From Candidatus Poseidoniaceae archaeon (GTDB taxonomy: Archaea; Thermoplasmatota; Poseidoniia; Poseidoniales; Poseidoniaceae), in the NCBI GenBank assembly GCA_965659685.1, contig CBFHXB010000013.1, positions 215 through 64,214 of the forward strand: 64,000 nt of DNA, in the 5' to 3' direction. Below, piece after piece: positions 3,004 through 45,232 of this stretch; the stretch's first letter is position 1, and every line of letters begins with the position of its first letter. The translations under genes were made by a program, and so were the position numbers. The notes beneath the pieces were generated by a model. The model saw only the letters and a list, made by a program, of their open reading frames with translations. It made no database searches and was not told the DNA's origin.

Positions 3004-3008
3004 AAAGG

Positions 3009-7809: not shown

Positions 7810-7857
7810 GCCCAAAACAGGCGCATGGGCTAAACCTCAGAAGGGGCTGCTTTCGCC

Positions 7858-8709
7858 ATGGAGGGCATCCTGCTCGCTCTTTTGTTTGGGGCGGGAGCCT
7901 TCGTGCTCCTTCTTGTTCTTCGCTTGGTCATCGCCGTTCGGAGGTTCAAACTCGAACAGCCTGAAAACGAACGAAACTGGGTGAACGACAACGCAAAACT
8001 GACCCGCGCCCACGTCGACGGCAACACGGTTCGCTTGGAGAACGTTCGAGATTTTTCATGGCGAACCACACAAGATTACGACGAGCGCTGGGTCGAGCGA
8101 ACGGTTCGCTTGGATTTGGTCAGCCGGGTGTGGCTCATCCTCGAATACTTCGAACCCGACAAACCGCAAATCGCTCACACCTTCCTTTCCTTTGAATTCG
8201 AGGACGGTCAACGCCTTGCGTGTTCCATCGAGGTGCGACGCGAGCAAGGCGAGCGCTTTCACCCCTTGAAGGGACTCACGCGCCAGTTCGAGTTGATGTA
8301 CGTCTGGGCCACGGAAGCGGACGCCATCGGCGTGCGCGCCCGATGCCGAAAGCGCTCGGTCACCCACCTGCTCGAGGGGCGTTTTCTCAAGGAGGAAAGC
8401 AAACCTGCCTTGTTGGAATCCTACCTCAAGCGCACGAACGCGCTGGCCGATCGTCCCGAATGGTACAACACCATCACCAACACTTGCACGACCAATTTGG
8501 TGCAACACGTGAACGACATTTACCCCGGCCGGGTCCCCATGGGTTTGGCCTGGTTGCTCCCCGGCCTGTCGCCCGAAATGATGGAACGCGAGCGCCTGAT
8601 CCACATCGACGAAGACCTGGCCACCACGATGGAACGAAGCCGAATCGATGAGCGTGCCCTCGATTGGGACGGCACCGGTGACTTTGGGGATTGGGTCAGA
8701 AGCGCGTGA
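7858..8709 (+). CDS. DUF4105/Lnb-N domain membrane-anchored protein
   Basis: N-terminal TM, NVRDFSW, AHTFLSF, SIEVRRE and YNTITNTCTTN (His/Cys dyad). Confidence 0.8.
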   Translation: MEGILLALLFGAGAFVLLLVLRLVIAVRRFKLEQPENERNWVNDNAKLTRAHVDGNTVRLENVRDFSWRTTQDYDERWVERTVRLDLVSRVWLILEYFEPDKPQIAHTFLSFEFEDGQRLACSIEVRREQGERFHPLKGLTRQFELMYVWATEADAIGVRARCRKRSVTHLLEGRFLKEESKPALLESYLKRTNALADRPEWYNTITNTCTTNLVQHVNDIYPGRVPMGLAWLLPGLSPEMMERERLIHIDEDLATTMERSRIDERALDWDGTGDFGDWVRSA

Positions 8710-14125: not shown

Positions 14126-14650
14126 TCAGGCATCAGGAGCAGGCTTGGCGACGTGCACGCCCGTGCCGTAGGCGAAGATTTCCATCGCTCCAGATTTGGA
14201 GTCGCCGCCCTTGTTGACGACAATCATCGAGGTGTCCAATCGCACGTTGATGACATGGTCAACCCCTTCGGCTTGAGCGATTTCTCGGAGGCGCTGAAGC
14301 GCTTCGCGGCGCCCGAATTCCAGCACCCGATCGAAGACGTGAATGCGTCCCCCGATGATTTTCTTCAGGCTTGCAAGAAGAAATTGCCACCACGACGGAC
14401 CGATGCTCACGTTGGCGGTCAACAAACGCCCATGGGTGATGTCGGCGCTCGGGTAGAGGTGTACCGTGGAGGTCAACGGATCACGGCCACCAAAGGCGGT
14501 GATGCTCGCTTTCTCACGCGCCGCGGTGTCGTTCAACTTCCGATTTTGGTAGCTGTTTCCAACGATCCATGAGAAGAGGAGCGGACCTCCACCGAAAATC
14601 AGCGGTGGAAGAAAGGTCCACAACACGGCCGCGACGGCTTCGTCCACCAT
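14126..14650 (-). CDS. YbjQ/UPF0145 family protein with N-terminal TM
   Basis: LKKIIGGRI, RREALQRL, VINVRLDT and EIFAYGTGV. Confidence 0.85.
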   Translation of the reverse strand: MVDEAVAAVLWTFLPPLIFGGGPLLFSWIVGNSYQNRKLNDTAAREKASITAFGGRDPLTSTVHLYPSADITHGRLLTANVSIGPSWWQFLLASLKKIIGGRIHVFDRVLEFGRREALQRLREIAQAEGVDHVINVRLDTSMIVVNKGGDSKSGAMEIFAYGTGVHVAKPAPDA

Positions 14651-14659
14651 GCGATGACC

Positions 14660-14971
14660 TCACTGGACTTGGACGGCGGTGCCGTAGGCAAAGAGTTCAG
14701 CCGCGCCACCGGCGACGGCCGAGGTTGCAAAACGGACGTTGACGATGGCGTTCGCCCCGAGGCCAGAAGCTGCTTGCATCATCCGCAGCATGGCTTCGTT
14801 GCGCGCTTCACCAAGCAACTCTGTGTAGCCCTTGAGTTCCCCACCGACGATGTTCTTCAGACCGGCCATGATGTCCCGGCCCACGTGCTTCGCACGCACC
14901 GTTGAGCCGGTGACCAGGCCCAAGGTCGCGGTGATGGTTCGACCAGGGATGGTCTCGGTGTTGGAAATCAT
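14660..14971 (-). CDS. YbjQ/UPF0145 family protein
   Basis: TETIPGR..LGLVTG, GLKNIVGGELKGYTELL and ELFAYGTAV. Alternative start at 14998. Confidence 0.92.
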   Translation of the reverse strand: MISNTETIPGRTITATLGLVTGSTVRAKHVGRDIMAGLKNIVGGELKGYTELLGEARNEAMLRMMQAASGLGANAIVNVRFATSAVAGGAAELFAYGTAVQVQ

Positions 14972-15039
14972 CAGTTGCGGAACGCCGCCGGGTTGCATGC
15001 CTCGACGTGGACGCGGTGCCCAATAGGCTTGTTGCCGTG

Positions 15040-15115
15040 TGGAGCCAGCGGAGGGATTCGAACCCCCGACCGCCGGATTACAAATCCGGCGCACTACCAC
15101 CTATGCTACGCTGGC
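15040..15115 (-). tRNA. tRNA-Thr(TGT), genomic CCA
   Basis: Reverse complement GCCAGCG...CCGGA-TTTGTAA-TCCGG...GTTCGAAT...CGCTGGCT-CCA. Confidence 0.95.
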
Positions 15116-18855: not shown

Positions 18856-19731
18856 GTGGCGGAAGCACAGCGCTTGGACGGACGGGCCTGTGCCGCCGAA
18901 CTCGACAGCAGGACCGCTGCTCGGGCTGCGGCCCTCACCGAACAAGGCGTGCAGCCTCACTTGGCCGTGGTCATCGTCGGCGACGACCCTGCTTCGCACG
19001 TCTACGTGCGCTCCAAGGTCAAGGCGTGCGAACGCCTTGGGCTGATCTCCACGCACGTTGAGCGTCCTGCCACCACCACGCAGGACGATCTTGAGGCCAT
19101 CGTGGACGGTCTCAACGCCGACCCCAGCGTGCATGGCATCCTCGTCCAATCCCCGCTGCCTGCGCACCTCGACGAAGGCGCCATCACGGACCGCATCGAT
19201 CCGGCCAAGGACGTCGACGGTTTTCATCCGGTCAACCTTGGACGGCTTGTCCAAGGACGCACCGATGGCCTGCTTCCCTGCACACCGTCGGGCGTGATGG
19301 AAATGTTGCGTTGGGCGAAGGTTCCCCTCCAAGGCAAGCGAGCCGTGGTGCTCGGCCGAAGCCGCATCGTCGGCATGCCCATGGCGTTGCTCTTGGCGGC
19401 GCGTGGCGCGGACGCCACCGTCACCGTCGTGCATTCGCGTACCGAAGACGTGGCGGACCGATGCCGCGAGGCCGACGTCATCGTGGCCGCCGTGGGACGT
19501 CCAGACATGGTGCAAGCCGACTGGGTCAAACCCGGCGCCACGGTGGTGGACGTCGGCATCAACCGCGTGGACGACGACAGCCGAGAACGCGGATGGCGCC
19601 TCGCCGGTGACGTTCATCCCGAAGTGGCGAGCGTCGCAGGTTGGCTCTCACCGGTGCCCGGCGGGGTTGGACCGATGACCATCGCGATGTTGATGGCCAA
19701 CACGGTTCGCGCCGCTGAAGGCCTCGAATGA
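18856..19731 (+). CDS. folD: bifunctional methylenetetrahydrofolate dehydrogenase/cyclohydrolase
   Basis: YVRSK, KDVDGFHP, PCTP, DVGINR and PVPGGVGPMT. Confidence 0.97.
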   Translation: MAEAQRLDGRACAAELDSRTAARAAALTEQGVQPHLAVVIVGDDPASHVYVRSKVKACERLGLISTHVERPATTTQDDLEAIVDGLNADPSVHGILVQSPLPAHLDEGAITDRIDPAKDVDGFHPVNLGRLVQGRTDGLLPCTPSGVMEMLRWAKVPLQGKRAVVLGRSRIVGMPMALLLAARGADATVTVVHSRTEDVADRCREADVIVAAVGRPDMVQADWVKPGATVVDVGINRVDDDSRERGWRLAGDVHPEVASVAGWLSPVPGGVGPMTIAMLMANTVRAAEGLE

Positions 19732-19774
19732 GTCGCCAACGGGTTCTTGACCCAAGAGGACGGACGATGGGTCG

Positions 19775-20653
19775 ATGGAAGCACGACGCCCCCGGCTTGC
19801 CCGCGTGTCGGGTGTGGCGGCGATGCTCCTTGGCGCCCTGATGATCGTCAACGCCTTCGCCGGGCGTTGGCCCGGCCATCCGGGGATGAAATTCCGCGTT
19901 CAGCCGTACGTGCTTGCTCGCCTCGACCGCTTTGACGGAACGTGGTGGGCACCCACCGGGTGGTACCACCAGGAATTCGTGGTGGGTGCGGTCATCGTCG
20001 CCTTGTTCGTCATCCAACGTCGGGCCTCCAAACCTCGCGAGGTCCCGACGATTCAACAGCGAAGCATCTCCGACCAGTTGGAGGACTTCGAAGCCGGTGG
20101 TATCACCGTCCGGTCTGCCCCACCACTCGGAGGTGCTTCGGCGACCACACAAGCCATCGTCCAGAGCATCCTTGGCAACGAACCTGAGGCCCAACGTGAC
20201 GTGTCCGCCGCGATCGCGCATCTCGACACCGACGAGACCGGGCAAGAAGCGGCGCGCGTCGTCGCGGCGGCCAAGAACCCACAACCCGCCATCGTGCGCG
20301 AGGCGCGGCCGCTCGTCGCCGTGCCCACGATGGACATCGAATTGCCGTCCCTCGACGTCGAACCCACGCCCACTGGACGTGACGAGAGCATCGAGGCGGC
20401 GACCCCCGAACCTGAGGCGCAGGCAGAGGAGACGGTCCAACCGGTGGCGTCCGTGCCCCTCCCCGTCCTTCCGAAGCCCACACCGGCCCCCGCGCCGGCC
20501 CCCGTCGAGCAACCAACGCCCGACGACCTCGGTCTCGACGGCTTGCTCGACGGCTTGGACCGTTTGTTCGACGAACCGGCTGAGGACGCTCAGGAAGACC
20601 CCGAAGACCACGGGATGAGCAACCTGCTCGACAGCCTGGACGACCTGTTCTGA
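19775..20653 (+). CDS. hypothetical membrane protein with long Pro/acidic disordered tail
   Basis: Two TMs, then low-complexity P/E/D sequence ending LLDSLDDLF; fills the gap in the + strand operon. Confidence 0.65.
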   Translation: MEARRPRLARVSGVAAMLLGALMIVNAFAGRWPGHPGMKFRVQPYVLARLDRFDGTWWAPTGWYHQEFVVGAVIVALFVIQRRASKPREVPTIQQRSISDQLEDFEAGGITVRSAPPLGGASATTQAIVQSILGNEPEAQRDVSAAIAHLDTDETGQEAARVVAAAKNPQPAIVREARPLVAVPTMDIELPSLDVEPTPTGRDESIEAATPEPEAQAEETVQPVASVPLPVLPKPTPAPAPAPVEQPTPDDLGLDGLLDGLDRLFDEPAEDAQEDPEDHGMSNLLDSLDDLF

Positions 20654-20662
20654 GGTGACCTC

Positions 20663-21550
20663 ATGTGGTGCTCTGACGTTGACCTGCATTCGCATTCCAC
20701 CCACAGCGACGGGACGCTGGAGGTGGCTGCATTGGCCGCCAGCATGGCGCGTGAAGGCGTGCAGGTGTGGAGCCTGACCGACCACGACACGACGTCGGGC
20801 TGGGAGGAGGCCGCGACCGAAGCAGCACGGCACGGGATGGCCTTCTTGCCCGGTGTCGAATTGACCTGCGTTCCCGCCTTGTCCCCCGACGGCGATGCTG
20901 CACGGGAAGGGTCCTGGCATCTGCTGGCGTACGTTCCAGGGGACGTGCAGCGCGCGGAAGTGCGCGAGTTTCGGGCGTGGATCGCCGGCCTGACCGAAGC
21001 GAGGGGACCGCGCATGACGATGATGATCGAGCGGCTCGGCACCTTCGGCATTCACGTGGACGAATCGAAGGTCCTCGCACGGGCCAACGGGGCCGTGGGT
21101 CGCCCCCACCTTGCCGCCGAATTGCTTGAGATGGGCGTGGTGGACACCTTCCAGCAAGCCTTCGACGAGTGGATCGGGGACGGCGCACCCGCAAACGTGG
21201 AACGCCCTCGACCGACCCTCGAAGAGGCGAGCCGCCGCGTCCACGCCGCGGGTGGATTCTGTTCCCTCGCCCACCCGGTGTACTACGGCGTGAGCACCGA
21301 CGCCGTGCTCGATCTCCTGTGCAGCATCGGCATCGAGGCCGTGGAAGCCTTCCACGGCGGGCACACCGACGCTTACCGTGACGAAGTGTGGCAAGCGGCG
21401 GTGAAACGCGGCCTTGCCGTGACCGCGGGATCAGACCACCACGGACCTGAGCATCACCCCCGGCCCGGCCATCGACCGGTTCCTTTGGCCGACGTGCACG
21501 GGGCCATCAAGCGCTTGCGCGAGGCACACCAAGCAGCCGGTCGACCATGA
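20663..21550 (+). CDS. PHP domain phosphoesterase (TrpH/YciV-like)
   Basis: DLHSHSTHSDG, LTDHD, GVE, GRPH, LAHP and GSDHHG. Confidence 0.92.
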   Translation: MWCSDVDLHSHSTHSDGTLEVAALAASMAREGVQVWSLTDHDTTSGWEEAATEAARHGMAFLPGVELTCVPALSPDGDAAREGSWHLLAYVPGDVQRAEVREFRAWIAGLTEARGPRMTMMIERLGTFGIHVDESKVLARANGAVGRPHLAAELLEMGVVDTFQQAFDEWIGDGAPANVERPRPTLEEASRRVHAAGGFCSLAHPVYYGVSTDAVLDLLCSIGIEAVEAFHGGHTDAYRDEVWQAAVKRGLAVTAGSDHHGPEHHPRPGHRPVPLADVHGAIKRLREAHQAAGRP

Positions 21551-26227: not shown

Positions 26228-26281
26228 CGCTGCACCGGTGGCCCGTCATCGGCTCTGCGTATAAATCCGGCTCTGACCATG

Positions 26282-26752
26282 TTAGGTCTCTTGGGACGGC
26301 AGGGGAAGCCGAACCCCTCGTCCTGATTCGAGATCGCGGGCCACGTGCAGGCGGATGACGTCGCCCTCGACACGCAGGGCGTCGGGGGCATCGATGCCCG
26401 GGCACGTTTGTCGAATCTTGCGCCATGCCCGCATGGATTTCAGGTTCTCCGACCACCAAGGAAAGGCCTCGCATTGTTGCGGTCGGTCCGCATAGACCGA
26501 GCAACGCTTGTCGCCGTCGAGGTAGATGCAAATGCCGTCTGAAGGACGGCTTCGAAGCACCAACCTGCCGTTCAACGACGTGGTGCAGTCGCGACGAATC
26601 CACGCCATTTCCTCCATTCCTGCACGCGCCGCGAGGCGCTGGATGTCGGTCCGAGAGAGAAACACCACACCGCCCGGTTGGTCGCAGCACGCCCCGCAAT
26701 CGGGTTGGCAGGCGAAGTTGACGCCGCCGTCCCACCAGGGCGTGCGGCTCAC
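26282..26752 (-). CDS. YkgJ family (CxxCxxCC) cysteine-cluster protein
   Basis: FACQPDCGACC, CIYL, CSVYADRPQQCEAFPWW and CPG. Confidence 0.92.
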   Translation of the reverse strand: MSRTPWWDGGVNFACQPDCGACCDQPGGVVFLSRTDIQRLAARAGMEEMAWIRRDCTTSLNGRLVLRSRPSDGICIYLDGDKRCSVYADRPQQCEAFPWWSENLKSMRAWRKIRQTCPGIDAPDALRVEGDVIRLHVARDLESGRGVRLPLPSQET

Positions 26753-28410
26753 GCCTGGCCCTCCGGAATCCTGACCGGACGCAGGCGGGCCAAACGGGCA
26801 GGGCCGCTCGCCCCTTTGGCGAGTTGATCGAGTTCCTGATCGATGGATTGGAGTTCATCGGTGATGGCCAGAAGTTCCTCCACGTCGGCCTCACGGGCTT
26901 CGGAGGCCAGCGCTTCCATGCGCAATTTCAGGGCCTCAAGACGAAGGTTCTGGTCTTCCGCGGCGTGGCGTCGGCGGACGATGGCGGCTTCCGCATCGAG
27001 GTCGATGTCGGCCATGACCTCCGCCGCACGGACCGCGTCAGGCATCTCGAGCCGTTCCACGTCGCGAACGAGGTATTGGTCGCGTTCGTTGGGGCGAAGG
27101 AGTTGATCCACGCGTGGGTCACGCGCCACCTCGAGGACGGCTTGAGCCACCCCTTCAGGGCGCGGCGCACCTTCCAACAAGGCGACGGCATCCGGCACCT
27201 CTGGCGTCCAGTCGTCGGAGATCTCGGGCACCGGCACGGTCAATTCCACGCCGCCGATGGCACCGCCGGCATCCACGGCATCGAGGGCGCGCTGGATGAC
27301 CGCCGTGGCGGTTTCCACATGGTCGGTGACCGGTGAAGCCTCGGCCGACGACGTCTCCGCGGGCGCGTGAAGATGGGAACGCAACCCGTTCTCAAGGCCA
27401 CGCCACGTCGGATGCTCAGCAGCAATGGACTGGAGGACGTCGTTCTCAACCACCAAGGCATCACGGACGGCCATCGCTCGAAGGGCGGCCAAGCGGTCGA
27501 TTGGACCGGGAGAGGCCAACGTGGCCATCACGCCTTCCTGCATGACGCGCGACAGCGGACTTGAGGGCCATGTGGCCGGTGGCTGGGTGGTGCAGACCAC
27601 CACCTGGACACCGAGGTTCATCGCCAGGTCAACGACGTGATGGAGACGGCGGCATCGTTCAGGGTCCCCAATTGCTTCGTCCACGTCGTCGATGAGCACG
27701 CCGCTCGAGCGGGAAAGGCGGGCGTCAAGGTCGCTGAATTGAGCGTCGAGGACGTCCAAGGGCATGGAAGCCGGATGACGCAGCAAAGCAACGCCCCCTT
27801 CCTGACGGCGAAGCAGGGCTTGCCCGATGGCGTGAAGCAAATGGCTCCTTCCTGAGCCTGGAGGCCCCTGGATCACCAGCGGGTTGACCTCACCGGCGTT
27901 GGACACGACGTGGTCCGCCCAACTGCTGGCGCCACGGTTGCTCTCAAGCACCACCCAATGCCGGAAGGTCTGTTGTTCGGACCATCGCAGGCCCCACGCC
28001 CATGCTTCAGGAAGGTGCGTGGCGGGAGGCGCCCGTGAAGCGTGCGCACCAAGCATGCTTTGCCACAATGGCTCACCAAGTTCGCCTTCACCAAGCCGAG
28101 CCGATGGTTCGGCGGGCGGCGTCGCTGAAGCAGGATCGAAGGTCGACGTGTGGCCTTCCACACGCCGCGCCAAACGGCGGGCCAATTCGTCTTCCAACCC
28201 GCCTTTTGCGGGGGTTGGCGCGGGTGGAGGTGCGGCGGCTGGGGACCACGCCACGACAGGGCGGAGGCGGGCCATCGGTGGCCGATCGCTTCGTGTGGCC
28301 AACTGCTCAATCGCACCCTGGGTCGTTGAGGGAGCGGTATCCACGGCTTGCTCTTGGCCAAGTCCGTGTCGGGCGCGCCGCACGGCCGCGCGGAGGGGAG
28401 AATCACGCAT
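26749..28410 (-). CDS. DnaA/Hda-type AAA+ domain protein with C-terminal coiled coil
   Basis: TFRHWVVLESN, NPLVIQGPPGSGRSHLLHAIG, LIDDVD, LSRV..G and WRGLENGL. Start at ATG 28410 overlaps the upstream stop. Confidence 0.8.
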   Translation of the reverse strand: MRDSPLRAAVRRARHGLGQEQAVDTAPSTTQGAIEQLATRSDRPPMARLRPVVAWSPAAAPPPAPTPAKGGLEDELARRLARRVEGHTSTFDPASATPPAEPSARLGEGELGEPLWQSMLGAHASRAPPATHLPEAWAWGLRWSEQQTFRHWVVLESNRGASSWADHVVSNAGEVNPLVIQGPPGSGRSHLLHAIGQALLRRQEGGVALLRHPASMPLDVLDAQFSDLDARLSRSSGVLIDDVDEAIGDPERCRRLHHVVDLAMNLGVQVVVCTTQPPATWPSSPLSRVMQEGVMATLASPGPIDRLAALRAMAVRDALVVENDVLQSIAAEHPTWRGLENGLRSHLHAPAETSSAEASPVTDHVETATAVIQRALDAVDAGGAIGGVELTVPVPEISDDWTPEVPDAVALLEGAPRPEGVAQAVLEVARDPRVDQLLRPNERDQYLVRDVERLEMPDAVRAAEVMADIDLDAEAAIVRRRHAAEDQNLRLEALKLRMEALASEAREADVEELLAITDELQSIDQELDQLAKGASGPARLARLRPVRIPEGQA

Positions 28411-30139
28411 CGCCGTCACCTCCGAGCCGGCGCGTCTTGCGGGAAGAACGCCTGCGACGACGCGGCGTTTCAACGGTCGCCGCGCCGGTGGGGGCATCAG
28501 GTTGAGGGGTGAAGAGGCGGGCGTGAGCGCCGTCCACGTCAAACGCTTGCTGAGGACGAACCGCTGCCTTTTGGAGGCCCTTCACCTTGGGCACCTCGAC
28601 CGTGCTGGGCTCGGGCGCAAAGCGCCGGGCCAACCGGAGCGAGTCCCATGCTTGACGGCGCTTCATGGCGTCAGACGAGGGGACCTCAGGCCACGATTCC
28701 GGGCGAGCCAACGGAGGCCGGTTGGCCTTCTCCGTCATGGCGGGAAGGTTGCGTACCTTGGCCAGGCCAAGCGGTTTGGGTGAGCGCGCGACAGGCAAAG
28801 ACGCGGCCGACTCGGGAGCGTTTCGCACCAGGTCCGCGGTGGCGTCACCGCCGCGTCCCTCTGCGGGCCATACCGCGTCTCGTGATTCGCCCATCGGAGG
28901 CTGGAATTTTGGTACCCGAGTCGCGCGGTGCGGTGCAGGCTTGCGGGCTCGAACACGTTGGGCGCGTCGGGGTTTTCGGGGGATGACCGGCGAGGGTTCC
29001 ACGACCGATTCAACCTCGGGTTCAAGCTCGGCCTCAGGCTCGTCGTCCACCTCGGGTTCTGGCTCAACCACTTGAACATCGACCGTTTCGATGTCCTCCA
29101 CGTGATCGTCCACGTCGTCGTCGATGCCCGGGGCAAACCGCTCGCGCGTCTGCGCCACGGCGTCGGCGTCGAAGCCGCTTAGCGCGCGCAGGCTTCGTTC
29201 GTCGCTCGCCAAGGCCGCGACATCCTCGACGTCCATGGGTGCACCGTAATGGGTAAAGCGGGTCAATTCAGCCGTGGTCAGCACCTCTTCAGCAATGTGA
29301 ATCAGGTGAACGGCGCCATGTTCCCGACCATGATCCAGCAGGTCCGCAAAGGACGAGGCCGCGACTTCAGGCCCCATCACGACCGACAGGAGGTGCACGT
29401 CCACGCTGACGATGAGCATGGGCCTGTCGTCAAGCGCCGCTTCAGGGAGGTTCAGCGCCCCTTCGTGAATCCACAGGTGGTGGACACCTTCTGGGACGTC
29501 CTCGCCCCGTCGAACGATCATGACGCTGCATCCGCCTGCAGCCGCCCATGCACGGGACATGGCGGCAAGGGCCTCGGGCGTTGATGCGTGCACCAAGCGC
29601 ACGCTGCCCGGTGAGAGGTCCACGTGGTCCACCCGAATTCGTGCACGGGTTCGGTCCACGGAGGCACGGATCTCCTCTGGGGCGCGAACGGTGGGAGCCA
29701 TCGTTGGAAGCCGCGGGGCCCGGGCGCGACGAGGGGCCGGGATGCGCCCTTCCCACCAGCGGACGTCGTCGTGTTCGACGTGGTTCGAAAATCGGCTCCC
29801 TTCATGGACGGCCAAGGCTTCTTGCACCAACGAACCGGGAAGATGGTGCACCTCGACTTCCGTGGTGCCCGAGCGAAGCATCTCTCGGAACGGGGCCAAG
29901 GCCACCTCGCCCACGACGGTTCCATCGTCGTCCTGAATCAAGGCCCCGATGGGTGCGCCTGCGGCGAGGGCCAACACGCCCGTTGCGCCGTCGTCAGCCC
30001 GGGCCACAAAGCCGCCGCTGAGACCGAGGGTGGCGGCATCGGCGAGCATCACTTCGAGCACTTCAGCGCCTCCGCGCCGAACCTCGAGCACCTCACCGCG
30101 CGGCCAATCCACCATCTTGCTCCTCAGTTCACCGACCAT
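28403..30139 (-). CDS. hypothetical protein, DUF2226-like N-terminus, DUF835-like middle domain and disordered tail
   Basis: WPRGEVLE...LSGGF...GAPIGAL...EVEVHHL, then SPGSVRLV...IVRR...LWI...FADLLD, then an acidic and then basic Pro-rich tail. Domain names are tentative; alternative start at 30115. Confidence 0.6.
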   Translation of the reverse strand: MVGELRSKMVDWPRGEVLEVRRGGAEVLEVMLADAATLGLSGGFVARADDGATGVLALAAGAPIGALIQDDDGTVVGEVALAPFREMLRSGTTEVEVHHLPGSLVQEALAVHEGSRFSNHVEHDDVRWWEGRIPAPRRARAPRLPTMAPTVRAPEEIRASVDRTRARIRVDHVDLSPGSVRLVHASTPEALAAMSRAWAAAGGCSVMIVRRGEDVPEGVHHLWIHEGALNLPEAALDDRPMLIVSVDVHLLSVVMGPEVAASSFADLLDHGREHGAVHLIHIAEEVLTTAELTRFTHYGAPMDVEDVAALASDERSLRALSGFDADAVAQTRERFAPGIDDDVDDHVEDIETVDVQVVEPEPEVDDEPEAELEPEVESVVEPSPVIPRKPRRAQRVRARKPAPHRATRVPKFQPPMGESRDAVWPAEGRGGDATADLVRNAPESAASLPVARSPKPLGLAKVRNLPAMTEKANRPPLARPESWPEVPSSDAMKRRQAWDSLRLARRFAPEPSTVEVPKVKGLQKAAVRPQQAFDVDGAHARLFTPQPDAPTGAATVETPRRRRRSSRKTRRLGGDGDA

Positions 30140-30615: not shown

Positions 30616-31240
30616 ACTCCCAACGGGTTTCCTTCCGCTCGGCACCACCGAAGTGGGTGATGAGGTTGCACAAATGGCGACGTGGACCTTCCGCGCGGCC
30701 ACAAGCCTAGGAGCACTGGGCGTGGTGCTCAGCCTGGGGTTCAACCTGGTGCTGATTCCGAGCGTCGGAGCCTTGCTTGTGGGAGGCCTTGCATGGCGTC
30801 GCGCTCGCGTTCTCCGTGACCTCCCGTTTGCCGTCAACGCAAACCATCCGTGGATCCTCGACCAAGCGATGGGAAAGGCCGAGGTGGCCGTTCGAGCGGC
30901 GGATGATCGCTGGGTCGTCTTGGGCGACCTCCGATTGAAACTCCACACCGACCCCTTGCTGGGCGACCCCCTGCTGGTCGAAGCCAACGAACCGTGGGAC
31001 ACCGTGGTCAGGTGGCCACAGGCATCTCCGGCCCGCTTGCAACGGTGGTTGGTGGTCGGCAACACAGCCCTCGCCCTTCGTGATGCGGTGAACGGCCATG
31101 ACGAAGAGGCCGAAGAACAACGGCGACGTGCTGCGAACGACACCGATTTGCTGGACCGCCAATGGCCGGAAGAAGAGGACACGATGGAAGAGGGATTGGC
31201 CCTCACCCGTTGGCTTGAATCCGCTCGCCCGAAGAAGTGA
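30608..31240 (+). CDS. hypothetical membrane protein
   Basis: ATG overlaps the DUF309 end; two TMs followed by a soluble region. Confidence 0.65.
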   Translation: MSELPTGFLPLGTTEVGDEVAQMATWTFRAATSLGALGVVLSLGFNLVLIPSVGALLVGGLAWRRARVLRDLPFAVNANHPWILDQAMGKAEVAVRAADDRWVVLGDLRLKLHTDPLLGDPLLVEANEPWDTVVRWPQASPARLQRWLVVGNTALALRDAVNGHDEEAEEQRRRAANDTDLLDRQWPEEEDTMEEGLALTRWLESARPKK

Positions 31241-31307
31241 TGAGATGGCCATGTGGCCTTCTTTTCGGTCCTTCATGTTCATAATCTCATCAGAAAACCA
31301 GCGTCCC

Positions 31308-31922
31308 ATGTCAGGGGCCGAATGGCGGGCAGGTTTGGACCACCTCGGCCCAAAACAAGCCGAGTTGTTGCTCGGCACGTCCCTCTCACGGCGTTTCGCC
31401 AGCTTGCCCATGTGGCTCAACCACCCGGCCAACGTCGCCGGATTCTACGGCATCCTCGTGGCCCTCGCGCTGCTCCTGCCGTACCGTGTGTCCTACGGTG
31501 ATGCAATCTGGTGGCCCACGTGGATCTTCCATGCCTCCCTGCTCATCGCGTCGTGCATGCTGCTGGGTTTTGCATCGCTCATCATCGCCCGTTTCTCAAA
31601 GCGCGCACCCGTGGCACCGCCTCGAACGGTGTTGTACGCCATGCCCTTCGTGGGCCTTGCCGTGCTAGGAGGGAACATCACGGGACTGTTCTCCTTGCCA
31701 CCTGCCCCGGTGTGGTTCCTCCTCCTGCTCCCGGGGCCGCTCTACGTTCACCTGAGTTGGGCCCCACGGTGGCGCATGCTGTGCCGGCTCGAAGACGGGA
31801 AAGACCCCTTCGAAGACATCGACATCGAACCCGTTGAGACGGAAACGGACATGGAGGCCATCGTCGAGGACGACGGCGACCTCAAGGACGTGCTGGACAC
31901 CATCCTCTCCGAAGAGGAATGA
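31308..31922 (+). CDS. hypothetical 4-TM membrane protein with acidic tail
   Basis: Hydrophobic segments and GC3-biased codons. Start estimated. Confidence 0.65.
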   Translation: MSGAEWRAGLDHLGPKQAELLLGTSLSRRFASLPMWLNHPANVAGFYGILVALALLLPYRVSYGDAIWWPTWIFHASLLIASCMLLGFASLIIARFSKRAPVAPPRTVLYAMPFVGLAVLGGNITGLFSLPPAPVWFLLLLPGPLYVHLSWAPRWRMLCRLEDGKDPFEDIDIEPVETETDMEAIVEDDGDLKDVLDTILSEEE

Positions 31923-33683: not shown

Positions 33684-34577
33684 CCAGTGCAACCGGCCGA
33701 GCGCCGACCATTCGTGGTGGAGCAGGGCCTCGATTTCCGAGGAGGCGGCCGCGCTCCATCGCCGACGCATCGTCCGTTCTGCACCTTCAGCGCGCGTCGG
33801 CGGCGCCTGCCAGGTCATGGTTCGCTCTGGCGAGGGCGTGACGGGAAGATCCTCCCATACCACGTCCCAAAGGACGAGCCATTCTGCAGGTGCCACACCA
33901 AAGTCAACGGCCACCTCTGGCCGATGAAGGGCTTCGTGGACCTCGTCGTACGTCAGCCGGCCAAGTTCGAGGCTGTGCACCGCCATGGCGATGCGTCGGA
34001 CCTGATTCCAAAGGAAGGAATGCCCGACGATTTCGAAGCCCACCGTTCGACCTCCAACCGTCCAAGGCGTCGCCGAGAGGACGGTCCGCATCGGGTTCTT
34101 GCCTTCCTCCATTCGAGCAAAATTCCGAACGTCGTGGGTGCCGACAAAGAGGTCCAAGTGGCGCTGGAAGCGTTCCGGGTCCTCCGCCCACCATCCTTCC
34201 ATCCCTTCCAGTCTGTACCGGTAGACGCGGTGGTCGGCCAACCTCGGATTCCAACCCGGAGAAACCTCGGTGGCATCGAGCACCGCCAGATGGTCGGGGA
34301 GACGATCGGCCATGGCCCGAACCAACTTCCGGTCACCGATTTTCTCGTAGAGGCTGCGCTCGAGGGTCAACAGGCCGCCGTTTCGTCGGACGTTGACCCC
34401 GGCATCCGTTCGGCTTCCGAGGATCATCGTGTGCGCGTCGTCCTTCCACCATCCCAAGGACCGCAGCACCCGCTGGAGTTCACCTTGAACGGTGATCACG
34501 TCAGGCTGGATTTGACTGCCATGAAAGGCGTCGCCAAGGTAGCCGACGCGGAGGGCAAGATGGACGAGTTCGCCCAT
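33678..34577 (-). CDS. truA: tRNA pseudouridine(38-40) synthase
   Basis: GYLGDAFHGSQIQP, SRTDAGV, RVYRY, GTHDVRNF and FLWNQVRRI. Confidence 0.92.
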   Translation of the reverse strand: MGELVHLALRVGYLGDAFHGSQIQPDVITVQGELQRVLRSLGWWKDDAHTMILGSRTDAGVNVRRNGGLLTLERSLYEKIGDRKLVRAMADRLPDHLAVLDATEVSPGWNPRLADHRVYRYRLEGMEGWWAEDPERFQRHLDLFVGTHDVRNFARMEEGKNPMRTVLSATPWTVGGRTVGFEIVGHSFLWNQVRRIAMAVHSLELGRLTYDEVHEALHRPEVAVDFGVAPAEWLVLWDVVWEDLPVTPSPERTMTWQAPPTRAEGAERTMRRRWSAAASSEIEALLHHEWSALGRLHWS

Positions 34578-34589
34578 CGTCAAACACCC

Positions 34590-35105
34590 TCAGGCGTCTT
34601 CGAGGAAGGCCTTGACGTCCTCAGCAGAGAAGCCCAGGCCGCCAATGGACCAGAGCAGGGCCTGCTTGAGCCAAGGCTGGCTGATGTCGGAGGTTCGCTC
34701 TGGGTCAACCACTTCGATGCGGTCGACCAAGTTGCGGGCTGCATTGTACAGGCGGTCGTCGTAAGGGATGTCGGCCATTTCGAGCCGCGTGGCGTAGCGC
34801 TGGAATTCTTTGACCGCCTGAGGAATGCGGTTGCATTCAAGCGCAAAGTCGGCGAAATCGGCGATGTATTCGTCGTTCTCTTCGTCGATCTGCATGGCTT
34901 TCTTGTAGGCCATCATGATCTTCCCACCGGGAATGACGTCTTCCTGAGCGTCCATGTTCAGCATGTTTGCGAACTCGGCGTAGGTGTGGTGAAGCGCTGC
35001 TTCATTGCGGTGTTCGCCGCGCAGGGCGTCGAGCAGATCCACGGCGCCCTGAAGGTCACCTTCTGCAAACTTGTCTAGGGCGGGTCGAAGCAGTTCATCG
35101 GACAT
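34590..35105 (-). CDS. TPR-like helical hypothetical protein
   Basis: AYKKAMQIDEEN..YIADFADFAL TPR-like pattern. Start at ATG 35105. Confidence 0.65.
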   Translation of the reverse strand: MSDELLRPALDKFAEGDLQGAVDLLDALRGEHRNEAALHHTYAEFANMLNMDAQEDVIPGGKIMMAYKKAMQIDEENDEYIADFADFALECNRIPQAVKEFQRYATRLEMADIPYDDRLYNAARNLVDRIEVVDPERTSDISQPWLKQALLWSIGGLGFSAEDVKAFLEDA

Positions 35106-35155
35106 GGAGGGGCCTCCACCCCACGGGGGGCGGGGCCTGCTCTTCAAGCCCTCGC

Positions 35156-36178
35156 TCAGTTCTCGCTCAGGGCTGCCTTGAGTTCTGAGAGTTGGCTGGA
35201 CTGGCTGTGGCGCATGTGGAGCTCGTTCAGCAACTCCTCGGTGTCCTGCCATCCACGCACGTTGAAGAAGCAGATTTTGGGGTCCGGGCTGGCGCTCGTG
35301 ACCGTGCGCTGGTACGTGAGCAGCCCGAGCAGACGTCGAGCGACGCTCTTCCCGGCCTTCTCTGCGTTGGTGTCGTCTTCGTTCGTTTGAACGGCCTCTG
35401 GCACGGCAGCCGCGGCGGCCACACCGCGGGTTTCCTGCGTCAGGCCGATGCCTGAATCGGTGAGCAGGGAAATGGTGGCAAAGCCAAGAACGGTGCCCAG
35501 CATCGAGCGCTCAACACCCACCTCGGAGATCTTCTCAAACAGGATACGGCGGTGACCGCGGACCAGCAAGAAGCGGTGGTCAAAGATGACCGCATCGCTG
35601 GTCACGGCGTAGTGGAAGGAGCGCTGGTAGTACGCCGTCAAGAGGACCAACATCCCAGAAAAGAACGCACCAGCGATCAGGTGATTGTAGTCTGGAAGCA
35701 AGCCTCCGCCGCTGCCAATGCTGGGGTAGGAGTCGCCAAGAAGGGCGGTCAACCAGTTGTCGAGGACCACCAACAACGGTGCGATGCTGGCGAGCAACAG
35801 CCACACGGTCAACCAGCGGTTGGAGGTGGTGAGGTTCAGCATTCGGTTGAACCATGTCAGGCCCAACATGAGGGCCATGAAGGTCACGTCGTTGGCCAAG
35901 ACGTTGAACAGGAGTTGGGAGACACCGCTTGAGTCGTCCGACGTCAGCATGCTCGCCAGGTTGTCGCTGAAGAAGAGCCAATGAAGCGCCATCAAGACCA
36001 TGGCGAGGACGTAGTATCCGGCGAAGGCCATGAAGGAAGGACGCGTATGGCGAAGGATTTCCTCGCCTGGGATGGTCCGGAATTTCTTCTGCAGGCTGGC
36101 GTCGGAGGTCTTCTCCTCTGCGGCCGGTGCGGGCGCTTCAGCAGGTGCTGGGGGCGCGTCGGTCGTTTCCTCGGTCAT
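35156..36178 (-). CDS. membrane protein with bacterial PH (bPH_2) domain
   Basis: PGEEILRHTRPS, TMs, then YAVTSDAVI...FEKISEVGVERSMLGTVLGFATI. Confidence 0.8.
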   Translation of the reverse strand: MTEETTDAPPAPAEAPAPAAEEKTSDASLQKKFRTIPGEEILRHTRPSFMAFAGYYVLAMVLMALHWLFFSDNLASMLTSDDSSGVSQLLFNVLANDVTFMALMLGLTWFNRMLNLTTSNRWLTVWLLLASIAPLLVVLDNWLTALLGDSYPSIGSGGGLLPDYNHLIAGAFFSGMLVLLTAYYQRSFHYAVTSDAVIFDHRFLLVRGHRRILFEKISEVGVERSMLGTVLGFATISLLTDSGIGLTQETRGVAAAAAVPEAVQTNEDDTNAEKAGKSVARRLLGLLTYQRTVTSASPDPKICFFNVRGWQDTEELLNELHMRHSQSSQLSELKAALSEN

Positions 36179-36273
36179 GGTGACACCCAAGCCGTCTTCT
36201 GTCGAGAACGACATGAACGTTTCCACGATACGAGACCGAACATAAGGGGCTGGTGGGCGTGCTGCCCTCCCCG

Positions 36274-37428
36274 TCAATGCAACAAGCCCCATGCGTGCTC
36301 TGCGTTGCCGCGGATCCACGCAAAGTCGGACTCCGTGCGGACACTCTGCTCGTCCTCAAGCCTGAGGCGGCGGACCTGCAACGGATACTCGTTGTAGGTC
36401 AAGTGGCTGCGAAGCCCTGCCCGGGTCGGCTGATCAAAGGTCCAATGGGCCCGGGCGAGCGCGGCCACTTCGAGGTCGATCGACACCCGTCCATTCCACA
36501 TGCGAATCGAAAAGACAGGCAGGCCGTTCTCGTTCCGCTTCCCGACCACCACCCTGCCAAAGCGCTCGGTGTGACCGCGTGTCTCGTCGTGCAACAGCCC
36601 GCCTTCGCTCAAGGCGACGTGCCCAAGGTCACGCGATTTCCAAGGGCGATCGTCGACGGCGCTCAACGTCGGTGAGGCGTGCGGCAGGAACCAATCGAGG
36701 TAGGAGCCGTCGGAGAAATGCAAGACGCCCCAATACCACGGCACCGACGGCGCCTGAACCTTGACCTTCTGGAAATACGCCGTACCCTGGACCGCTGCGC
36801 CATCGATGGTCCCTTCCGCGGTCGTGCCGTGCAGACGGAGGATGTCGTAGCCGAGGCCCGCGGCATAGGTGGCGGTGGCTTGCCGGGCGGTGGAAAGCCG
36901 CTCCGAGGCGGGGCGGAGCCGGAGGTCGAGGGAGGTGAACGGAGCGCCGTCGGGCATGGGGTCGAGGGTCAGCCAAAACTCAGCCCCGTCGCCGTCCATC
37001 CCCATGCTGTAGTCCTCGTCCAACAAAGGCACCACGGCCCCCACTCCACGATCAGGGGTCGCAACGCCGGGCCATGAGGGATGGGCGCCGGGCAAGACCA
37101 CCATGCTGCACCGCTTGGCCAGCACCGCATCGTGCATGGCCTCGCCGTCGAACCACCATGCGCACACCATCCCGTCGAGGGACATGCCACCGTGTTCGTC
37201 CACACCAGGACGACCCTGTGGACGCCATGTGGCACCGTTGACCTCGACCCTCGGCGCGTCTTTGGTCGACCAGAGCGTCATCAGTTGCTTCCCGGTGGGA
37301 CGTCCTTGCTCGTCTTCGAGCATCACCAGCCACCACCACCAATCCCAGGTCAGGCCTCGGATGGGTGGGCGCTGATCAAGGCGCCAAAGCCCGCTCAGGT
37401 CACCGAGAAAATGTGCGGGAGGCGTCAC
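36274..37428 (-). CDS. AttH/CrtC/tocopherol-cyclase-like beta-barrel protein (tentative)
   Basis: WDWWWW motif, GTIDG..VQGTAYFQK, PWYWG and GNAEHAWG. GTGA overlap with the permease stop. Confidence 0.6.
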   Translation of the reverse strand: MTPPAHFLGDLSGLWRLDQRPPIRGLTWDWWWWLVMLEDEQGRPTGKQLMTLWSTKDAPRVEVNGATWRPQGRPGVDEHGGMSLDGMVCAWWFDGEAMHDAVLAKRCSMVVLPGAHPSWPGVATPDRGVGAVVPLLDEDYSMGMDGDGAEFWLTLDPMPDGAPFTSLDLRLRPASERLSTARQATATYAAGLGYDILRLHGTTAEGTIDGAAVQGTAYFQKVKVQAPSVPWYWGVLHFSDGSYLDWFLPHASPTLSAVDDRPWKSRDLGHVALSEGGLLHDETRGHTERFGRVVVGKRNENGLPVFSIRMWNGRVSIDLEVAALARAHWTFDQPTRAGLRSHLTYNEYPLQVRRLRLEDEQSVRTESDFAWIRGNAEHAWGLLH

Positions 37429-38603
37429 GCGATCTCCTTCCCCTTGAACAGCGATTGGCCGATGATCCAAATCACGCCCGCTTGGAAGAGCAGGACCAGA
37501 ATCGCCACGGCGATGTTCCCCGTCGCTGAGATCTCGAAAGGAGCTTGAGAGGTCAAGAAGCCCAAGGATTCACCCGGCGCCACCACCGTGTGCGACCACA
37601 CGGCGTAGTCCGTGGTGTAGGCGATGAACGCCTCCTGATCCGACCACGACAGGGCGGTGGCGGCGTCGATGATGGCCAAACACCAACCGATGACGGAAAC
37701 GCGCAGCAATGGCGAGGACGGCAGCCCCATCGACAGGAAGGCCATCCCGAACTCCCACGCCGCGAATGGAATGGCGAGGACGATGCCGTACTTCCACATC
37801 ACGCCGAGGGTCATGAAGAGCATCCCGTAGACCAACAACGCCAACCAGGTGGCGAGCAAGATGGCCAACCAGATGCCGAGGTCCTCGAAACGGAACACCC
37901 CTTCCCCGGGAGCAGCGAATCCGGTGACCAACGCGGAGAGCACGACAACAGCAGCGCTGGCGGGCCACACGAGCGTCAGGTACCCCAACATCCGGTAGAG
38001 CAGCACCTCACCACGAGCGATGGGTTTCGCGAGAAGGAAGTGCATGGTTTCCGAGGTCATTTCGCCACGAATGAGGCCGGTGGCCAAGAACAAGGGAAGG
38101 AAAATCCCGAGGAGGAACACGATGCCCAATTTGCCGTAGCCCAACAGGAAAGCACGGTGCGTGGCCTCCTCCACGAAGTATTCCTCGTTCGGGTCTTCGT
38201 CCACGTCGTTGTCCCATAAAATCGCGGAACCGCCAAACCAATTCTGACGCAAGATGGCGTCGCAGACCACCCCGTTGTTGTTCGTGTCTTTGGCGCCGTC
38301 TGGACGGTCCGCCTCACGGCAATCGCCGTCGTCGTCGTAACCAAACGTGGTGGACGTTGCGTCCACCGAGGAGGGGAAATCTGGCCCGTCCTCGTCGAAC
38401 AGGCCATCGCCGTCGTTGTCGACCGATTCCACGGTGTCGTTCATCGCGTCAATGTAGAACAGCAGCACGGTGCCGAGGGCCACCACGCACGAGGCGAGGA
38501 CGACCCAAGTGGACAACCGCGTGCGGTATTGACGCAAAGTGAATTCCGCCACGGCGGTGGCCTTTCGGTCAAGGCCGCTCCACGCTTTGGTCGAGGAGGC
38601 CAT
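37425..38603 (-). CDS. ABC-2 type transporter permease with Asp-rich extracellular loop
   Basis: GEMTSETMHFLLAKPIARGEVLLYR; DNDGDG, DDDGD and DTNNNG motifs. Confidence 0.85.
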   Translation of the reverse strand: MASSTKAWSGLDRKATAVAEFTLRQYRTRLSTWVVLASCVVALGTVLLFYIDAMNDTVESVDNDGDGLFDEDGPDFPSSVDATSTTFGYDDDGDCREADRPDGAKDTNNNGVVCDAILRQNWFGGSAILWDNDVDEDPNEEYFVEEATHRAFLLGYGKLGIVFLLGIFLPLFLATGLIRGEMTSETMHFLLAKPIARGEVLLYRMLGYLTLVWPASAAVVVLSALVTGFAAPGEGVFRFEDLGIWLAILLATWLALLVYGMLFMTLGVMWKYGIVLAIPFAAWEFGMAFLSMGLPSSPLLRVSVIGWCLAIIDAATALSWSDQEAFIAYTTDYAVWSHTVVAPGESLGFLTSQAPFEISATGNIAVAILVLLFQAGVIWIIGQSLFKGKEIA

Positions 38604-43849: not shown

Positions 43850-44527
43850 TCAATGCGTCCCATCGCTACGAAGACCAAGGCGGGCCGCCAAACGTCGGTG
43901 AGCGGTGCTCTCCACCGCACCCAAGTGGCCGCTGATGGTTGCCCTTGACACGCCGATTTCGTGCGCCACGTCGGCGAGCGTGCACTTCCGTGGACGGTCG
44001 TAATACCCAAGCCGCCAAGCCGTCGAAAAGGCCTTCATTTGATGCTCGGTCAATCCAGCAAAGTCGTCTTGCTGCTGCTCCGTGAGTTGGACGACGGAGA
44101 CCGTCCCGTTCGGATTCCATGATTGAAAACCCTTCACCATGGCACTGCATCCTGCCGGAGTGCCTCGAATGATGACCGTGGCACCCGAGATGCCGATGGA
44201 TGACCCTGGGGCGACCACGGCATTCCAGATGTCGCGACCCATCCGAAGCAGACTGTGTGAATTCTGCACAAGCGCCGTCAATCGAACGCGTCCTCCGACG
44301 ACCTCTTCGCCAATGACTTCGATCAATTTGAACCAAGGGACAAGGTCAACGTCCTCGACGGTCATGTCGTCAGCGAGGGTCAATTGGAGCACATAGACGA
44401 TGGTGTTCTGTTCGTGGTGCCTGCTGACGCTCGCCATCAAGACGGCTTCTTCGCAGATGGCCGTTTGTTGGCTGAACTCGGAGTTCGCGATGGCATGCGC
44501 CGGATAGCGCAACCGAACTTCCTTCAT
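43850..44527 (-). CDS. HTH_10 (bacterio-opsin activator-type) transcription regulator
   Basis: LTEHQ..AFSTAWRLGYYDRPRKCTLADVAHEIGVSRATISGHL. Confidence 0.9.
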   Translation of the reverse strand: MKEVRLRYPAHAIANSEFSQQTAICEEAVLMASVSRHHEQNTIVYVLQLTLADDMTVEDVDLVPWFKLIEVIGEEVVGGRVRLTALVQNSHSLLRMGRDIWNAVVAPGSSIGISGATVIIRGTPAGCSAMVKGFQSWNPNGTVSVVQLTEQQQDDFAGLTEHQMKAFSTAWRLGYYDRPRKCTLADVAHEIGVSRATISGHLGAVESTAHRRLAARLGLRSDGTH

Positions 44528-44572
44528 CAGAACCTTGCCTGAACCCTCACGTTTGGAGTTAACCCAGGAGGG

Positions 44573-45232
44573 TCATTCGCCGATCCAATCGAGCAAACGG
44601 CGGTGTGCGATGCGGTCAACTTCACGCAGGTGACCGCTGATGGTGGCGTTTGACACACCTGCTGCCTTGGCGATGTCGCTGAGTGCACACCCGCGCGGGA
44701 CGTCGAAGTAACCCATGGACCAAGCCATCCTGGCCGCTTCGACTTGTTGGGGCGTCAAGCCCGCATCGGTGTCATGATCTGCATCGCCCGAGCGAACGAC
44801 GGCCACGGTGCATCGGTCGTTCCAGAGCCGAAACGCGGCCACCAAGGCCTGACAACCGTCGCTGGAACCTCGAACGACGATCTCCGCGCCGCGCCGACCG
44901 ATGCGCGTGCCGGGACTGATGATGGCGTCTGGAACCTCCAAGGGGATGGTCACCAAGGGGTGCGTGAATCGAACAATGGCGTACATGGCATCCCCGTCGG
45001 CGGTGGGTTCGGTTCGAACGATTTCTTCGATGGCCAACCATGGAATCTCGTTGATGTGGTCGGTCGTCGATCCATCGGCAAGGCGAAGGCGCACCATGAC
45101 CGTCACGGCATCGTTGGCGTCCGAGCGGCCCAACGTGTTGAGGAGTTCGAATTCTTCGATGCGTTCCAGTTGTTGCTGAAACTCGGTGCCAAGAAGCACA
45201 TCGCTGCCGTAGCGAAGGCGAATTTCTCTCAT
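44573..45232 (-). CDS. HTH_10 (bacterio-opsin activator-type) transcription regulator, paralog
   Basis: LTPQQ..AARMAWSMGYFDVPRGCALSDIAKAAGVSNATISGHL. Confidence 0.9.
   Translation of the reverse strand: MREIRLRYGSDVLLGTEFQQQLERIEEFELLNTLGRSDANDAVTVMVRLRLADGSTTDHINEIPWLAIEEIVRTEPTADGDAMYAIVRFTHPLVTIPLEVPDAIISPGTRIGRRGAEIVVRGSSDGCQALVAAFRLWNDRCTVAVVRSGDADHDTDAGLTPQQVEAARMAWSMGYFDVPRGCALSDIAKAAGVSNATISGHLREVDRIAHRRLLDWIGE

Follow-up and report, generated by a model that had tools for sequence, protein, structure and literature searches.

The window analysed here is a 64,000-nucleotide stretch of contig CBFHXB010000013.1 (C13) from a Candidatus Poseidoniaceae archaeon whose 1.89 Mb genome is 87% complete. 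Three overlapping genes on its minus strand, here called A, B and C, span positions 26282-30139. Protein B is a DnaA domain III AAA+ protein without domains I and IV, and, as judged from its sequence, its catalytic motifs are degenerate. Protein A combines an N-terminal domain with a KaiC-like domain that has no P-loop, and protein C is a Cys-cluster protein. The three genes form a Poseidoniales-specific, chromosomal, vertically inherited cassette. A and B appear to have branched off, in split and fast-evolving form, from a Thermoplasmatota family of much broader distribution, a descent argued from shared partner domains and not from phylogeny. Taken as a whole, the evidence makes it somewhat probable that the cassette pairs a repurposed, attenuated AAA+ protein with an inactivated-KaiC (iKaiC) scaffold, and that the pair works as a signalling or assembly switch.

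Protein B has the fold and motifs of DnaA domain III

Gene B (26749-28410, minus strand) encodes 553 residues. Its reading frame is open from 28542, and the ATG at 28410 is taken as the true start because 15 of the 20 close homologs are 551-556 residues long and begin MRDSPL, as does B from this codon. A homolog with 69% identity carries the NCBI name 'Candidatus Poseidoniales archaeon'. Pfam Bac_DnaA (PF00308) matches B at 39.7 bits, against a cut-off of 23 (E 7.4e-10). NCBIfam scores for DnaA (61.7 bits), Hda (57.4 bits) and IstB (21.6 bits) are all far under their own cut-offs, and the cut-off of the whole-protein DnaA model TIGR00362, 343.9 bits, is not reached. Sequence matches in the PDB comprise three entries, DnaA only. 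When the AlphaFold model of B, built from a 23-row alignment (mean predicted local distance difference test score, pLDDT, 69.5), was compared with the PDB by Foldseek, ranks 1-10 were all DnaA domain III or DnaA (best 8bv3, E 5.4e-14), followed by Hda and then by general AAA+ proteins. Because Pfam, NCBIfam, and PDB sequence and fold searches all agree, B is assigned to DnaA domain III. A preliminary description of this DNA, made from the letters alone, had read the middle gene in the same way and had left open whether other AAA+ clades would be the better structural match; the best folds are those of DnaA.

The AAA+ base and lid occupy residues about 135-350 (27361-28008, minus strand; pLDDT by block 81-96, mostly 88-96) and have the fold of bacterial DnaA domain III (PDB 8bv3, 8btg, 1l8q, 2hcb, 2z4r). 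They share with it the signatures TFxxF/W..N..A, NPL, G.G[KR][ST]HL[LM].A, hhhDD and [NW]R.L.G, and every motif that had been named for this gene is present (QTFRHWVVLESN, NPLVIQG, GSGRSHLLHAIG, LIDD, LSR and WRGLENGL). Where bacterial DnaA has its DnaA-box-binding domain, B bears an acidic linker, residues 351-455 (27046-27360, minus strand), mostly predicted with low confidence and with a conserved DDW/DDY motif, and a C-terminal helical (coiled-coil) hairpin, residues 456-534 (26809-27045, minus strand; pLDDT by block about 66-94, mostly 87-94). Residues 351-534 hold 42 Asp/Glu versus 17 Lys/Arg. Outside the AAA+ part and the hairpin, the model is of low confidence. Domains I, II and IV of bacterial DnaA are missing: DnaA_N (PF11638) and Bac_DnaA_C (PF08299) gave no match in B at E<=0.1, and a search of the entire genome (87% complete) for Bac_DnaA_C at E<=0.01 was negative. 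The replacement of domain IV by an acidic linker and coiled coil, proposed from the bare sequence, is thus what the family models and the structure prediction also return.

Catalytic motifs of B are degenerate to different degrees across the family

The Walker A motif of B reads GSGRS (27844-27858, minus strand), with Arg in place of the P-loop Lys, as had been noted beforehand. In an alignment of 23 Poseidoniales B proteins, 13 have K at the P-loop lysine position and 8 have R, while T and C occur once each; the first P-loop glycine is kept in 17 and replaced by E in 4 and by Q in 2. Other positions are better kept: Walker B DD in 21-22 of the 23 proteins, the sensor II Arg in 17 and NPL in all 23. 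By comparison with bacterial DnaA and with the intact relatives described below, the Poseidoniales proteins have lost DDIQF, the sensor I motif SDR and the box VII arginine-finger motif RLRSRFExGL. From the DnaA catalytic set, the B of the window retains only the Walker B DD and sensor II (WR). The earlier proposal of a repurposed, possibly attenuated AAA+ protein is upheld in part, namely for a DnaA-type module without its DNA-binding domain, for degenerate motifs, and for a host genome that has two Orc1/Cdc6 genes; the extent of motif decay differs from member to member.

Protein A carries a KaiC-like domain without a P-loop

Gene A (28403-30139, minus strand) is a 578-residue open reading frame (ORF) whose true start is probably the ATG at 30115, because its orthologs begin MVDWPRGEV. 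Its model has a mean pLDDT of 59.3. Residues about 10-115 (29795-30112, minus strand; pLDDT about 85-91) form an N-terminal alpha/beta domain, tentatively of DUF2226/PATAN-like type, residues about 155-335 (29135-29677, minus strand) a central RecA/KaiC-fold domain without a P-loop, of a degenerate DUF835/iKaiC kind, and residues 337-578 (28406-29131, minus strand) a disordered tail that is acidic and then basic and has one predicted helix, 490-507. No GxxGxGK[ST] P-loop follows strand 1 of the RecA/KaiC-fold domain. The best Foldseek match of this domain is RecA (E 9e-4). Comparison of residues 164-313 with VIA-align gave Z scores of 10.2 for Elp456, 10.0 for PH0250, 9.9 for FlaH and 9.3 for KaiC, with PH0284 also within Z 9-10.

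Neither Pfam nor NCBIfam has a match in the A of the window, and the Pfam model of DUF835 (PF05763) finds nothing in this genome. DUF835 is matched in 14 of 16 A orthologs from other genera (best E 1.2e-18), and the two A proteins without a match are that of the window and that of a same-genus relative. The upstream gene had been described as DUF835-like, which holds by way of these orthologs and of the P-loop-free RecA/KaiC fold, with the window's own copy unmatched. The accompanying DUF2226 label fares less well: when DUF2226 (PF09987) was run on 11 N-domains, one reached 23.6 bits (cut-off 22), one gave E 0.05 and that of the window gave none, and Atlas leads for the N-domain (DUF2226 0.80-0.81, PatA_N 0.80) all fall under the level that counts.

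PMC5847659 names DUF835, as 'iKaiC', among the output domains that archaeal response regulators carry. These domains share with A a RecA/KaiC fold without a P-loop and an archaeal signalling context; A differs in having no REC or PAS domain, and the copy in the window is too diverged for the Pfam model. A second DUF835-type paralog, about 300 residues long, lies elsewhere in most A-bearing Poseidoniales genomes (for example G003:C1:1265720-1266082); it was not found in the genome of the window, which is 87% complete.

Intact relatives in other Thermoplasmatota unite the domains of A and B

When 401 Thermoplasmatota genomes were searched with a B profile, matches were obtained in 57 of 57 other genomes of the window's family and in 10 of 37 of the sister family. 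The AAA+ part alone was matched in many other families (f19, for example, in 23 of 24 genomes), inside frames of about 430 and about 1250 residues. From 16 non-Poseidoniales loci taken for comparison, 17 proteins were scanned; Bac_DnaA scores in the proteins of these loci are 157-242 bits, and no Bac_DnaA_C was found in the 17 at E<=0.001. Six proteins of 611-867 residues have the order A-type N-domain, DnaA domain III, DUF835 (Bac_DnaA 157-203 bits, DUF835 63-89 bits). Elsewhere DnaA domain III stands between HEAT repeats and DUF835 with a zinc ribbon, between a long coiled coil and a zinc ribbon, behind a short coiled coil, or in fusion with a FlaI-type ATPase within a pilin/T2SSF locus. DnaA domain III and DUF835 lie on neighbouring genes in loci L049 and L051; in the latter (2373-6954, minus strand) a KaiC gene (233 residues, 128 bits) stands between the genes of a DnaA domain III protein (534 residues) and a HisKA_7TM-DUF835 protein (394 residues).

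The relation between these chains and A/B is seen in profile searches in both directions. A hidden Markov model (HMM) of the A family matches the N-domain of the six fused proteins (domain E 5e-11 to 4e-8 in five of six, 0.004 in the sixth) as well as their DUF835 part (3.5e-17 to 1.2e-25), and the B-family HMM matches their middle. An HMM built from the six fused N-domains in turn finds 14 of 16 Poseidoniales A proteins, missing those of the window and of L020. A cluster of 115 archaeal proteins in the ESM Atlas has Bac_DnaA in 100% and DUF835 in 99%. Since the N-domain of A, DnaA domain III and DUF835 share one chain in other Thermoplasmatota, A and B together are best read as a split, degenerate form of one module. 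The fused form has the same three domains as A plus B and likewise has no domain IV; it differs in being one chain with intact ATPase motifs, whereas A and B are two overlapping genes with degenerate motifs, an added gene C and another domain arrangement (N-domain and DUF835 in A, AAA+ and coiled coil in B).

The scores of the intact modules, 319-377 bits on the DnaA model versus 108-115 on Hda, point to DnaA rather than Hda as the source. Full-length bacterial DnaA proteins, many of them named as Clostridia or Bacilli, have a domain III with 56-60% identity to these modules. Hda resembles B in consisting of domain III only and is its second-best family by sequence and by fold (3bos, 5x06), yet it is about 230 residues long versus 553 for B. 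Bacterial non-initiator use of the domain has a parallel in tandem proteins of about 650 residues (P0185-P0211, such as P0192 and P0198), which, where they bear a name, are called 'DnaA/Hda family protein' or 'AAA family ATPase' of Gemmatimonadota and have two Bac_DnaA domains and no domain IV; these are bacterial, have the domain duplicated and are without DUF835, and their higher totals with the B profile come from two matched stretches. Apparent 'intermediates' of 130-231 bits in a profile search of 1.84 billion proteins proved to be such tandem two-domain bacterial proteins, not closer kin, and were set aside. A zinc-ribbon neighbour of four fused genes was likewise rejected as a part of the module: it has no counterpart in 20 Poseidoniales loci, and as a query in the genome of the window it gave only zinc-ribbon-sized matches.

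The surroundings of some intact relatives are of a signalling type, with the KaiC and 7TM-DUF835 genes in L051, a Ras-like GTPase in L053, a PAS-kinase-REC protein in L050 and the FlaI-type fusion in L046. The L046 fusion (5856-8297, plus strand) is an 813-residue protein, named DnaA by NCBI, whose DnaA domain III is intact (234 bits) and whose FlaI/T2SSE-type ATPase part scores 403 bits on the NCBIfam archaellum motor model; on either side of its gene are those of an archaeal pilin, DUF7289 and two T2SSF proteins. Such a fusion lends some weight to an alternative in which the A/B pair regulates a type-IV-pilus-like or secretion machine, with the iKaiC domain acting in a FlaH-like manner and B docking on a PilB/FlaI-family ATPase. 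Two long metagenome proteins (P0225 and P0226, 1876 and 1990 residues), in which MshEN is followed by two Bac_DnaA domains, point the same way. So does the resemblance of the RecA-like domain of A to FlaH, although the scores for FlaH, KaiC, RecA and Elp456 are much the same. A/B-bearing genera are also the only ones in which a second FlaI-family paralog (about 397 bits) was seen; this is a lead, but the co-distribution may stem from one reduction event, and none of the four T2SSE genes of the genome lies on the contig of the window. A link of A/B to the archaellum was rejected: true FlaI is present in genera g17 and g22, which have no A/B, and was not found in g10, g11 and g19, which do. Regulation of a pilus-like machine is thus rather unlikely.

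A and B are kept together and are under purifying selection

Across 20 loci from 15 Poseidoniales genera, the gene order is an aminotransferase gene, an ORF, (DUF309), A, B, C and citrate synthase. In all 20 loci the gene immediately upstream of B is A (15 by BLAST, with a profile search placing it in the other five genomes), so that the A-B order, which the preliminary description had proposed to check, is conserved. Across the 151 genomes of the order, a single-protein query detected B in 96 and a profile detected A in 99, some of the latter matches being the shorter DUF835 paralog. Both occur in the same 15 of 22 genera. The remaining seven genera, with 52 genomes, yielded neither; their individually listed genomes are 1.2-1.6 Mb in size, several of them more than 90% complete. 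In four of four syntenic loci from A/B-free genomes, A, B and C are all absent and citrate synthase abuts what is normally found on the far side of A (DUF309, the ortholog of ORF 31098-31922, or the aminotransferase gene). A single-protein query for C gave no match elsewhere in five of five A/B-free genomes. This shows that A, B and C go together, though the loss may be one or few events.

Comparison of the window with a genome of the same genus gave ratios of nonsynonymous to synonymous substitution rates (dN/dS; NG86) of 0.145 (A), 0.154 (B), 0.059 (C) and 0.051 (citrate synthase), rough values given that dS is 0.8-1.75 and near saturation. Because dN/dS is about 0.15, A and B are not decaying; decay was the outcome that would have spoken against the preliminary description. 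This bears on the notion that A and B are remnants, in decay and with no present function, of a bacterial gene gained by horizontal transfer. The copies in the window are indeed the most diverged, with the Pfam signal of DUF835 gone from A and B at 39.7 bits versus 157-242 in other Thermoplasmatota, and within the neighbourhood A and B belong to the proteins that evolve faster (65-67% identity versus 90-96% for C, citrate synthase, the aminotransferase and a membrane protein). Beyond the substitution rates, B frames contain no internal stop among the matches listed for 96 genomes, the start/stop overlaps are kept and motifs such as NPL are invariant, all of which makes a relic highly improbable.

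Fixed position also speaks to the idea of a STAND/AAA+-type anti-virus defence system. Pfam gives a weak nSTAND_NTPase5 match (19.2 bits, below the cut-off of 34), and the mad8 match reported by PADLOC (20.4 bits) extends over 34 residues at the P-loop. PADLOC gives no family beyond that P-loop-sized match, the cassette keeps one syntenic position among housekeeping genes in 20 of 20 loci, and the Pfam survey of the window saw no mobile-element families. A defence role is accordingly very doubtful.

B lacks the domain by which DnaA reads DnaA boxes

Two Orc1/Cdc6 genes over the family cut-off are present in this genome, on contigs C7 and C1, and neither adjoins the cassette; the host context of archaeal Orc1/Cdc6 initiation, on which the preliminary description had relied, is thus borne out, and it sets the host of B apart from that of bacterial DnaA. 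Because domains I and IV are absent, B cannot read DnaA boxes and is not a replication initiator. A less direct role, as an Hda-like or single-stranded-DNA-binding regulator of Orc1/Cdc6-dependent initiation or of fork processes, with the basic tail of A on DNA, would draw on DnaA and Hda being the nearest families by sequence and fold, on the last 178 residues of A holding 33 Lys/Arg versus 19 Asp/Glu, and on gyrB lying within two genes of the fused gene in four of six fused loci (L044, L045, L047 and L054), an arrangement that resembles the dnaA-gyrB neighbourhood of bacteria. The score of B on the Hda model (TIGR03420), 57.4 bits, nevertheless compares with a cut-off of 194.8, and the sensor I and box VII motifs are gone. 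Archaea use PCNA as their sliding clamp. In a complete 2.06-Mb relative, the cassette, at 1.52 Mb, is about 308 kb away from the nearer of the two Orc1/Cdc6 genes (1.83 and 0.70 Mb), and the 52 genomes that carry neither A nor B nonetheless belong to free-living archaea. Taken together, these points make a function in replication improbable.

One of the gyrB-linked loci shows a feature of its own: in L047 (836-3325, minus strand) gyrB is split by an intein (Intein_splicing 63 bits), and ThiC lies between gyrB and the fused DnaA-III/DUF835 gene.

A model for the A/B pair and the points that weigh against it

The model that we prefer, a switch built from a repurposed AAA+ protein and an iKaiC scaffold, begins with the capture of bacterial DnaA domain III as the putative source of B. 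The AAA+ module of DnaA assembles head-to-tail on ATP. A would be the partner of B: it carries the same N-domain and inactivated KaiC-like (DUF835) domain as the fused Thermoplasmatota chain, so that in this reading A and B are the fused module divided into two co-translated proteins. With sensor I and the box VII arginine finger lost in Poseidoniales, and the P-loop lysine in about 10 of 23 proteins, the AAA+ part could now be a nucleotide-binding or purely structural assembly unit, that is, a pseudo-ATPase. Dimerised through its coiled-coil hairpin, B would draw A, the scaffold with the iKaiC domain and N-domain, into a complex serving as a signalling or assembly switch, with C, a metal-binding Cys-cluster protein, as an accessory, possibly for redox or metal input. 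This function is deduced from domain logic and from the signalling-type neighbours of the intact relatives. The analysis establishes the domain identities, the split/fusion relation, co-occurrence and block loss, purifying selection and motif decay, whereas physical binding of A to B, oligomerisation, nucleotide state and output are all inferred.

Several observations limit this model or weigh against it. Prediction of a complex of A(1-345) with B(130-553), from alignments made for this analysis, gave a score of 0.00, which counts neither for nor against binding. Since GK[ST] is retained in 13 of the 23 B proteins and Walker B DD in nearly all, some members may, as far as their sequences tell, still bind or hydrolyse ATP. 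The whole region is syntenic in Poseidoniales, so adjacency alone is weak evidence, and the co-absence in seven genera could reflect one or few genome reductions among related, non-independent genomes; the near-saturated dS values likewise reduce what the selection estimates can carry. In a tree built from 75 sequences of domain III, all 23 B domains of Poseidoniales group together (support 100), set apart from every other sequence by a branch of 0.63 + 1.81 changes per column. Its bacterial rows are the best matches to one archaeal query (mostly with Firmicutes-type names) plus two others, and it contains no Hda/DnaC outgroup. Because of the very long branch, the narrow bacterial sample and the missing outgroup, the tree does not place the donor or the attachment point of B.

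The remaining points concern gene C (26282-26752, minus strand), which starts with GTG and encodes a 156-residue CxxCxxCC (YkgJ-type) protein. It matches PF03692 at 42.7 bits (cut-off 23), as the earlier assignment to YkgJ had it, and its cysteines are conserved in at least 90% of 21 aligned sequences (that of the window and 20 orthologs). Its strand relative to B is the same in 13 of 20 loci and opposite in seven, so that C need not belong to the operon, and a C-like neighbour was seen at none of the 16 non-Poseidoniales loci. The link of a YkgJ/CxxCxxCC protein to a DnaA-like/iKaiC pair is seen only in Poseidoniales.

A broader and more speculative scheme would join the preferred model to the pilus alternative. 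Thermoplasmatota may have captured the core of bacterial DnaA, which self-assembles in an ATP-dependent way, as a general signalling or assembly switch, wired to an inactivated KaiC and in some lineages to type-IV-pilus-type ATPases, and the split pseudo-ATPase version of Poseidoniales (A and B, with C) might control a surface or secretion machine that includes the co-distributed ATPase paralog. We regard this scheme as unlikely.

Gene layout and other features of the window

The three overlapping ORFs first reported for this DNA are all present, on the minus strand. The stop of A and the start of B overlap by 8 nucleotides (ATGCGTGA, 28403-28410, minus strand), and the stop of B and the GTG start of C by 4 (GTGA, 26749-26752, minus strand). 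The cassette ends in a 54-nucleotide spacer before citrate synthase (26228-26281, minus strand) with a TTTATA-like box, presumably the promoter of that gene. A divergent DUF309 gene lies upstream of A. According to the Pfam survey, the rest of the window carries genes of housekeeping function (PheRS, FolD, the SUF system, archaeosine TGT and ABC transporters). Metatranscriptome contigs from two libraries of two studies cover 27007-28056 of B and 29015-29846 of A, mostly at 95-99% likeness; none of them spans a gene junction and none covers C. These pieces are a weak hint that A and B are expressed, and DNA carry-over is possible.

Elsewhere in the window, the final 6 kb are taken up by an ORF of at least 2003 residues (57953-63964, minus strand), which contains He_PIG (putative Ig) domains (109.6 bits) and probably encodes a giant surface protein. 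Two tandem paralogs of about 220 residues each (43850-45232, minus strand) have a C-terminal HTH_10 DNA-binding domain, and two tandem YbjQ_1 (putative heavy-metal-binding) genes lie at 14126-15100 (minus strand). Several long ORFs of 244-611 residues, with a GC content at third codon positions of 0.64-0.79, have no Pfam family at E<=1e-10 (569-6142, 19559-21394 and 33687-37470).

Implications

DnaA is the textbook replication initiator of bacteria, and to our knowledge archaea are held to lack it. In the open-access literature on DUF835, on archaeal DnaA-like or Bac_DnaA proteins and on Poseidoniales/Marine Group II, we found no description of the present module. As far as that literature goes, it constitutes an undescribed, real and conserved archaeal use of the DnaA ATPase fold, of which the window holds the most degenerate, split variant. 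NCBI and JGI label the fused-form relatives 'chromosomal replication initiator protein DnaA'; such labels on these archaeal genes are misleading and could distort inferences about replication.

The DnaA ATPase core is widespread in one archaeal phylum, in non-replicative architectures, and a degenerate split version of it is under purifying selection in one of the most abundant groups of archaea in the ocean. Together, these proteins form a natural series from intact ATPase to pseudo-ATPase, useful for studying roles of the DnaA fold apart from origin opening. In addition, B gives the DUF835/iKaiC signalling domain, which is poorly understood, a first partner that can be tested.

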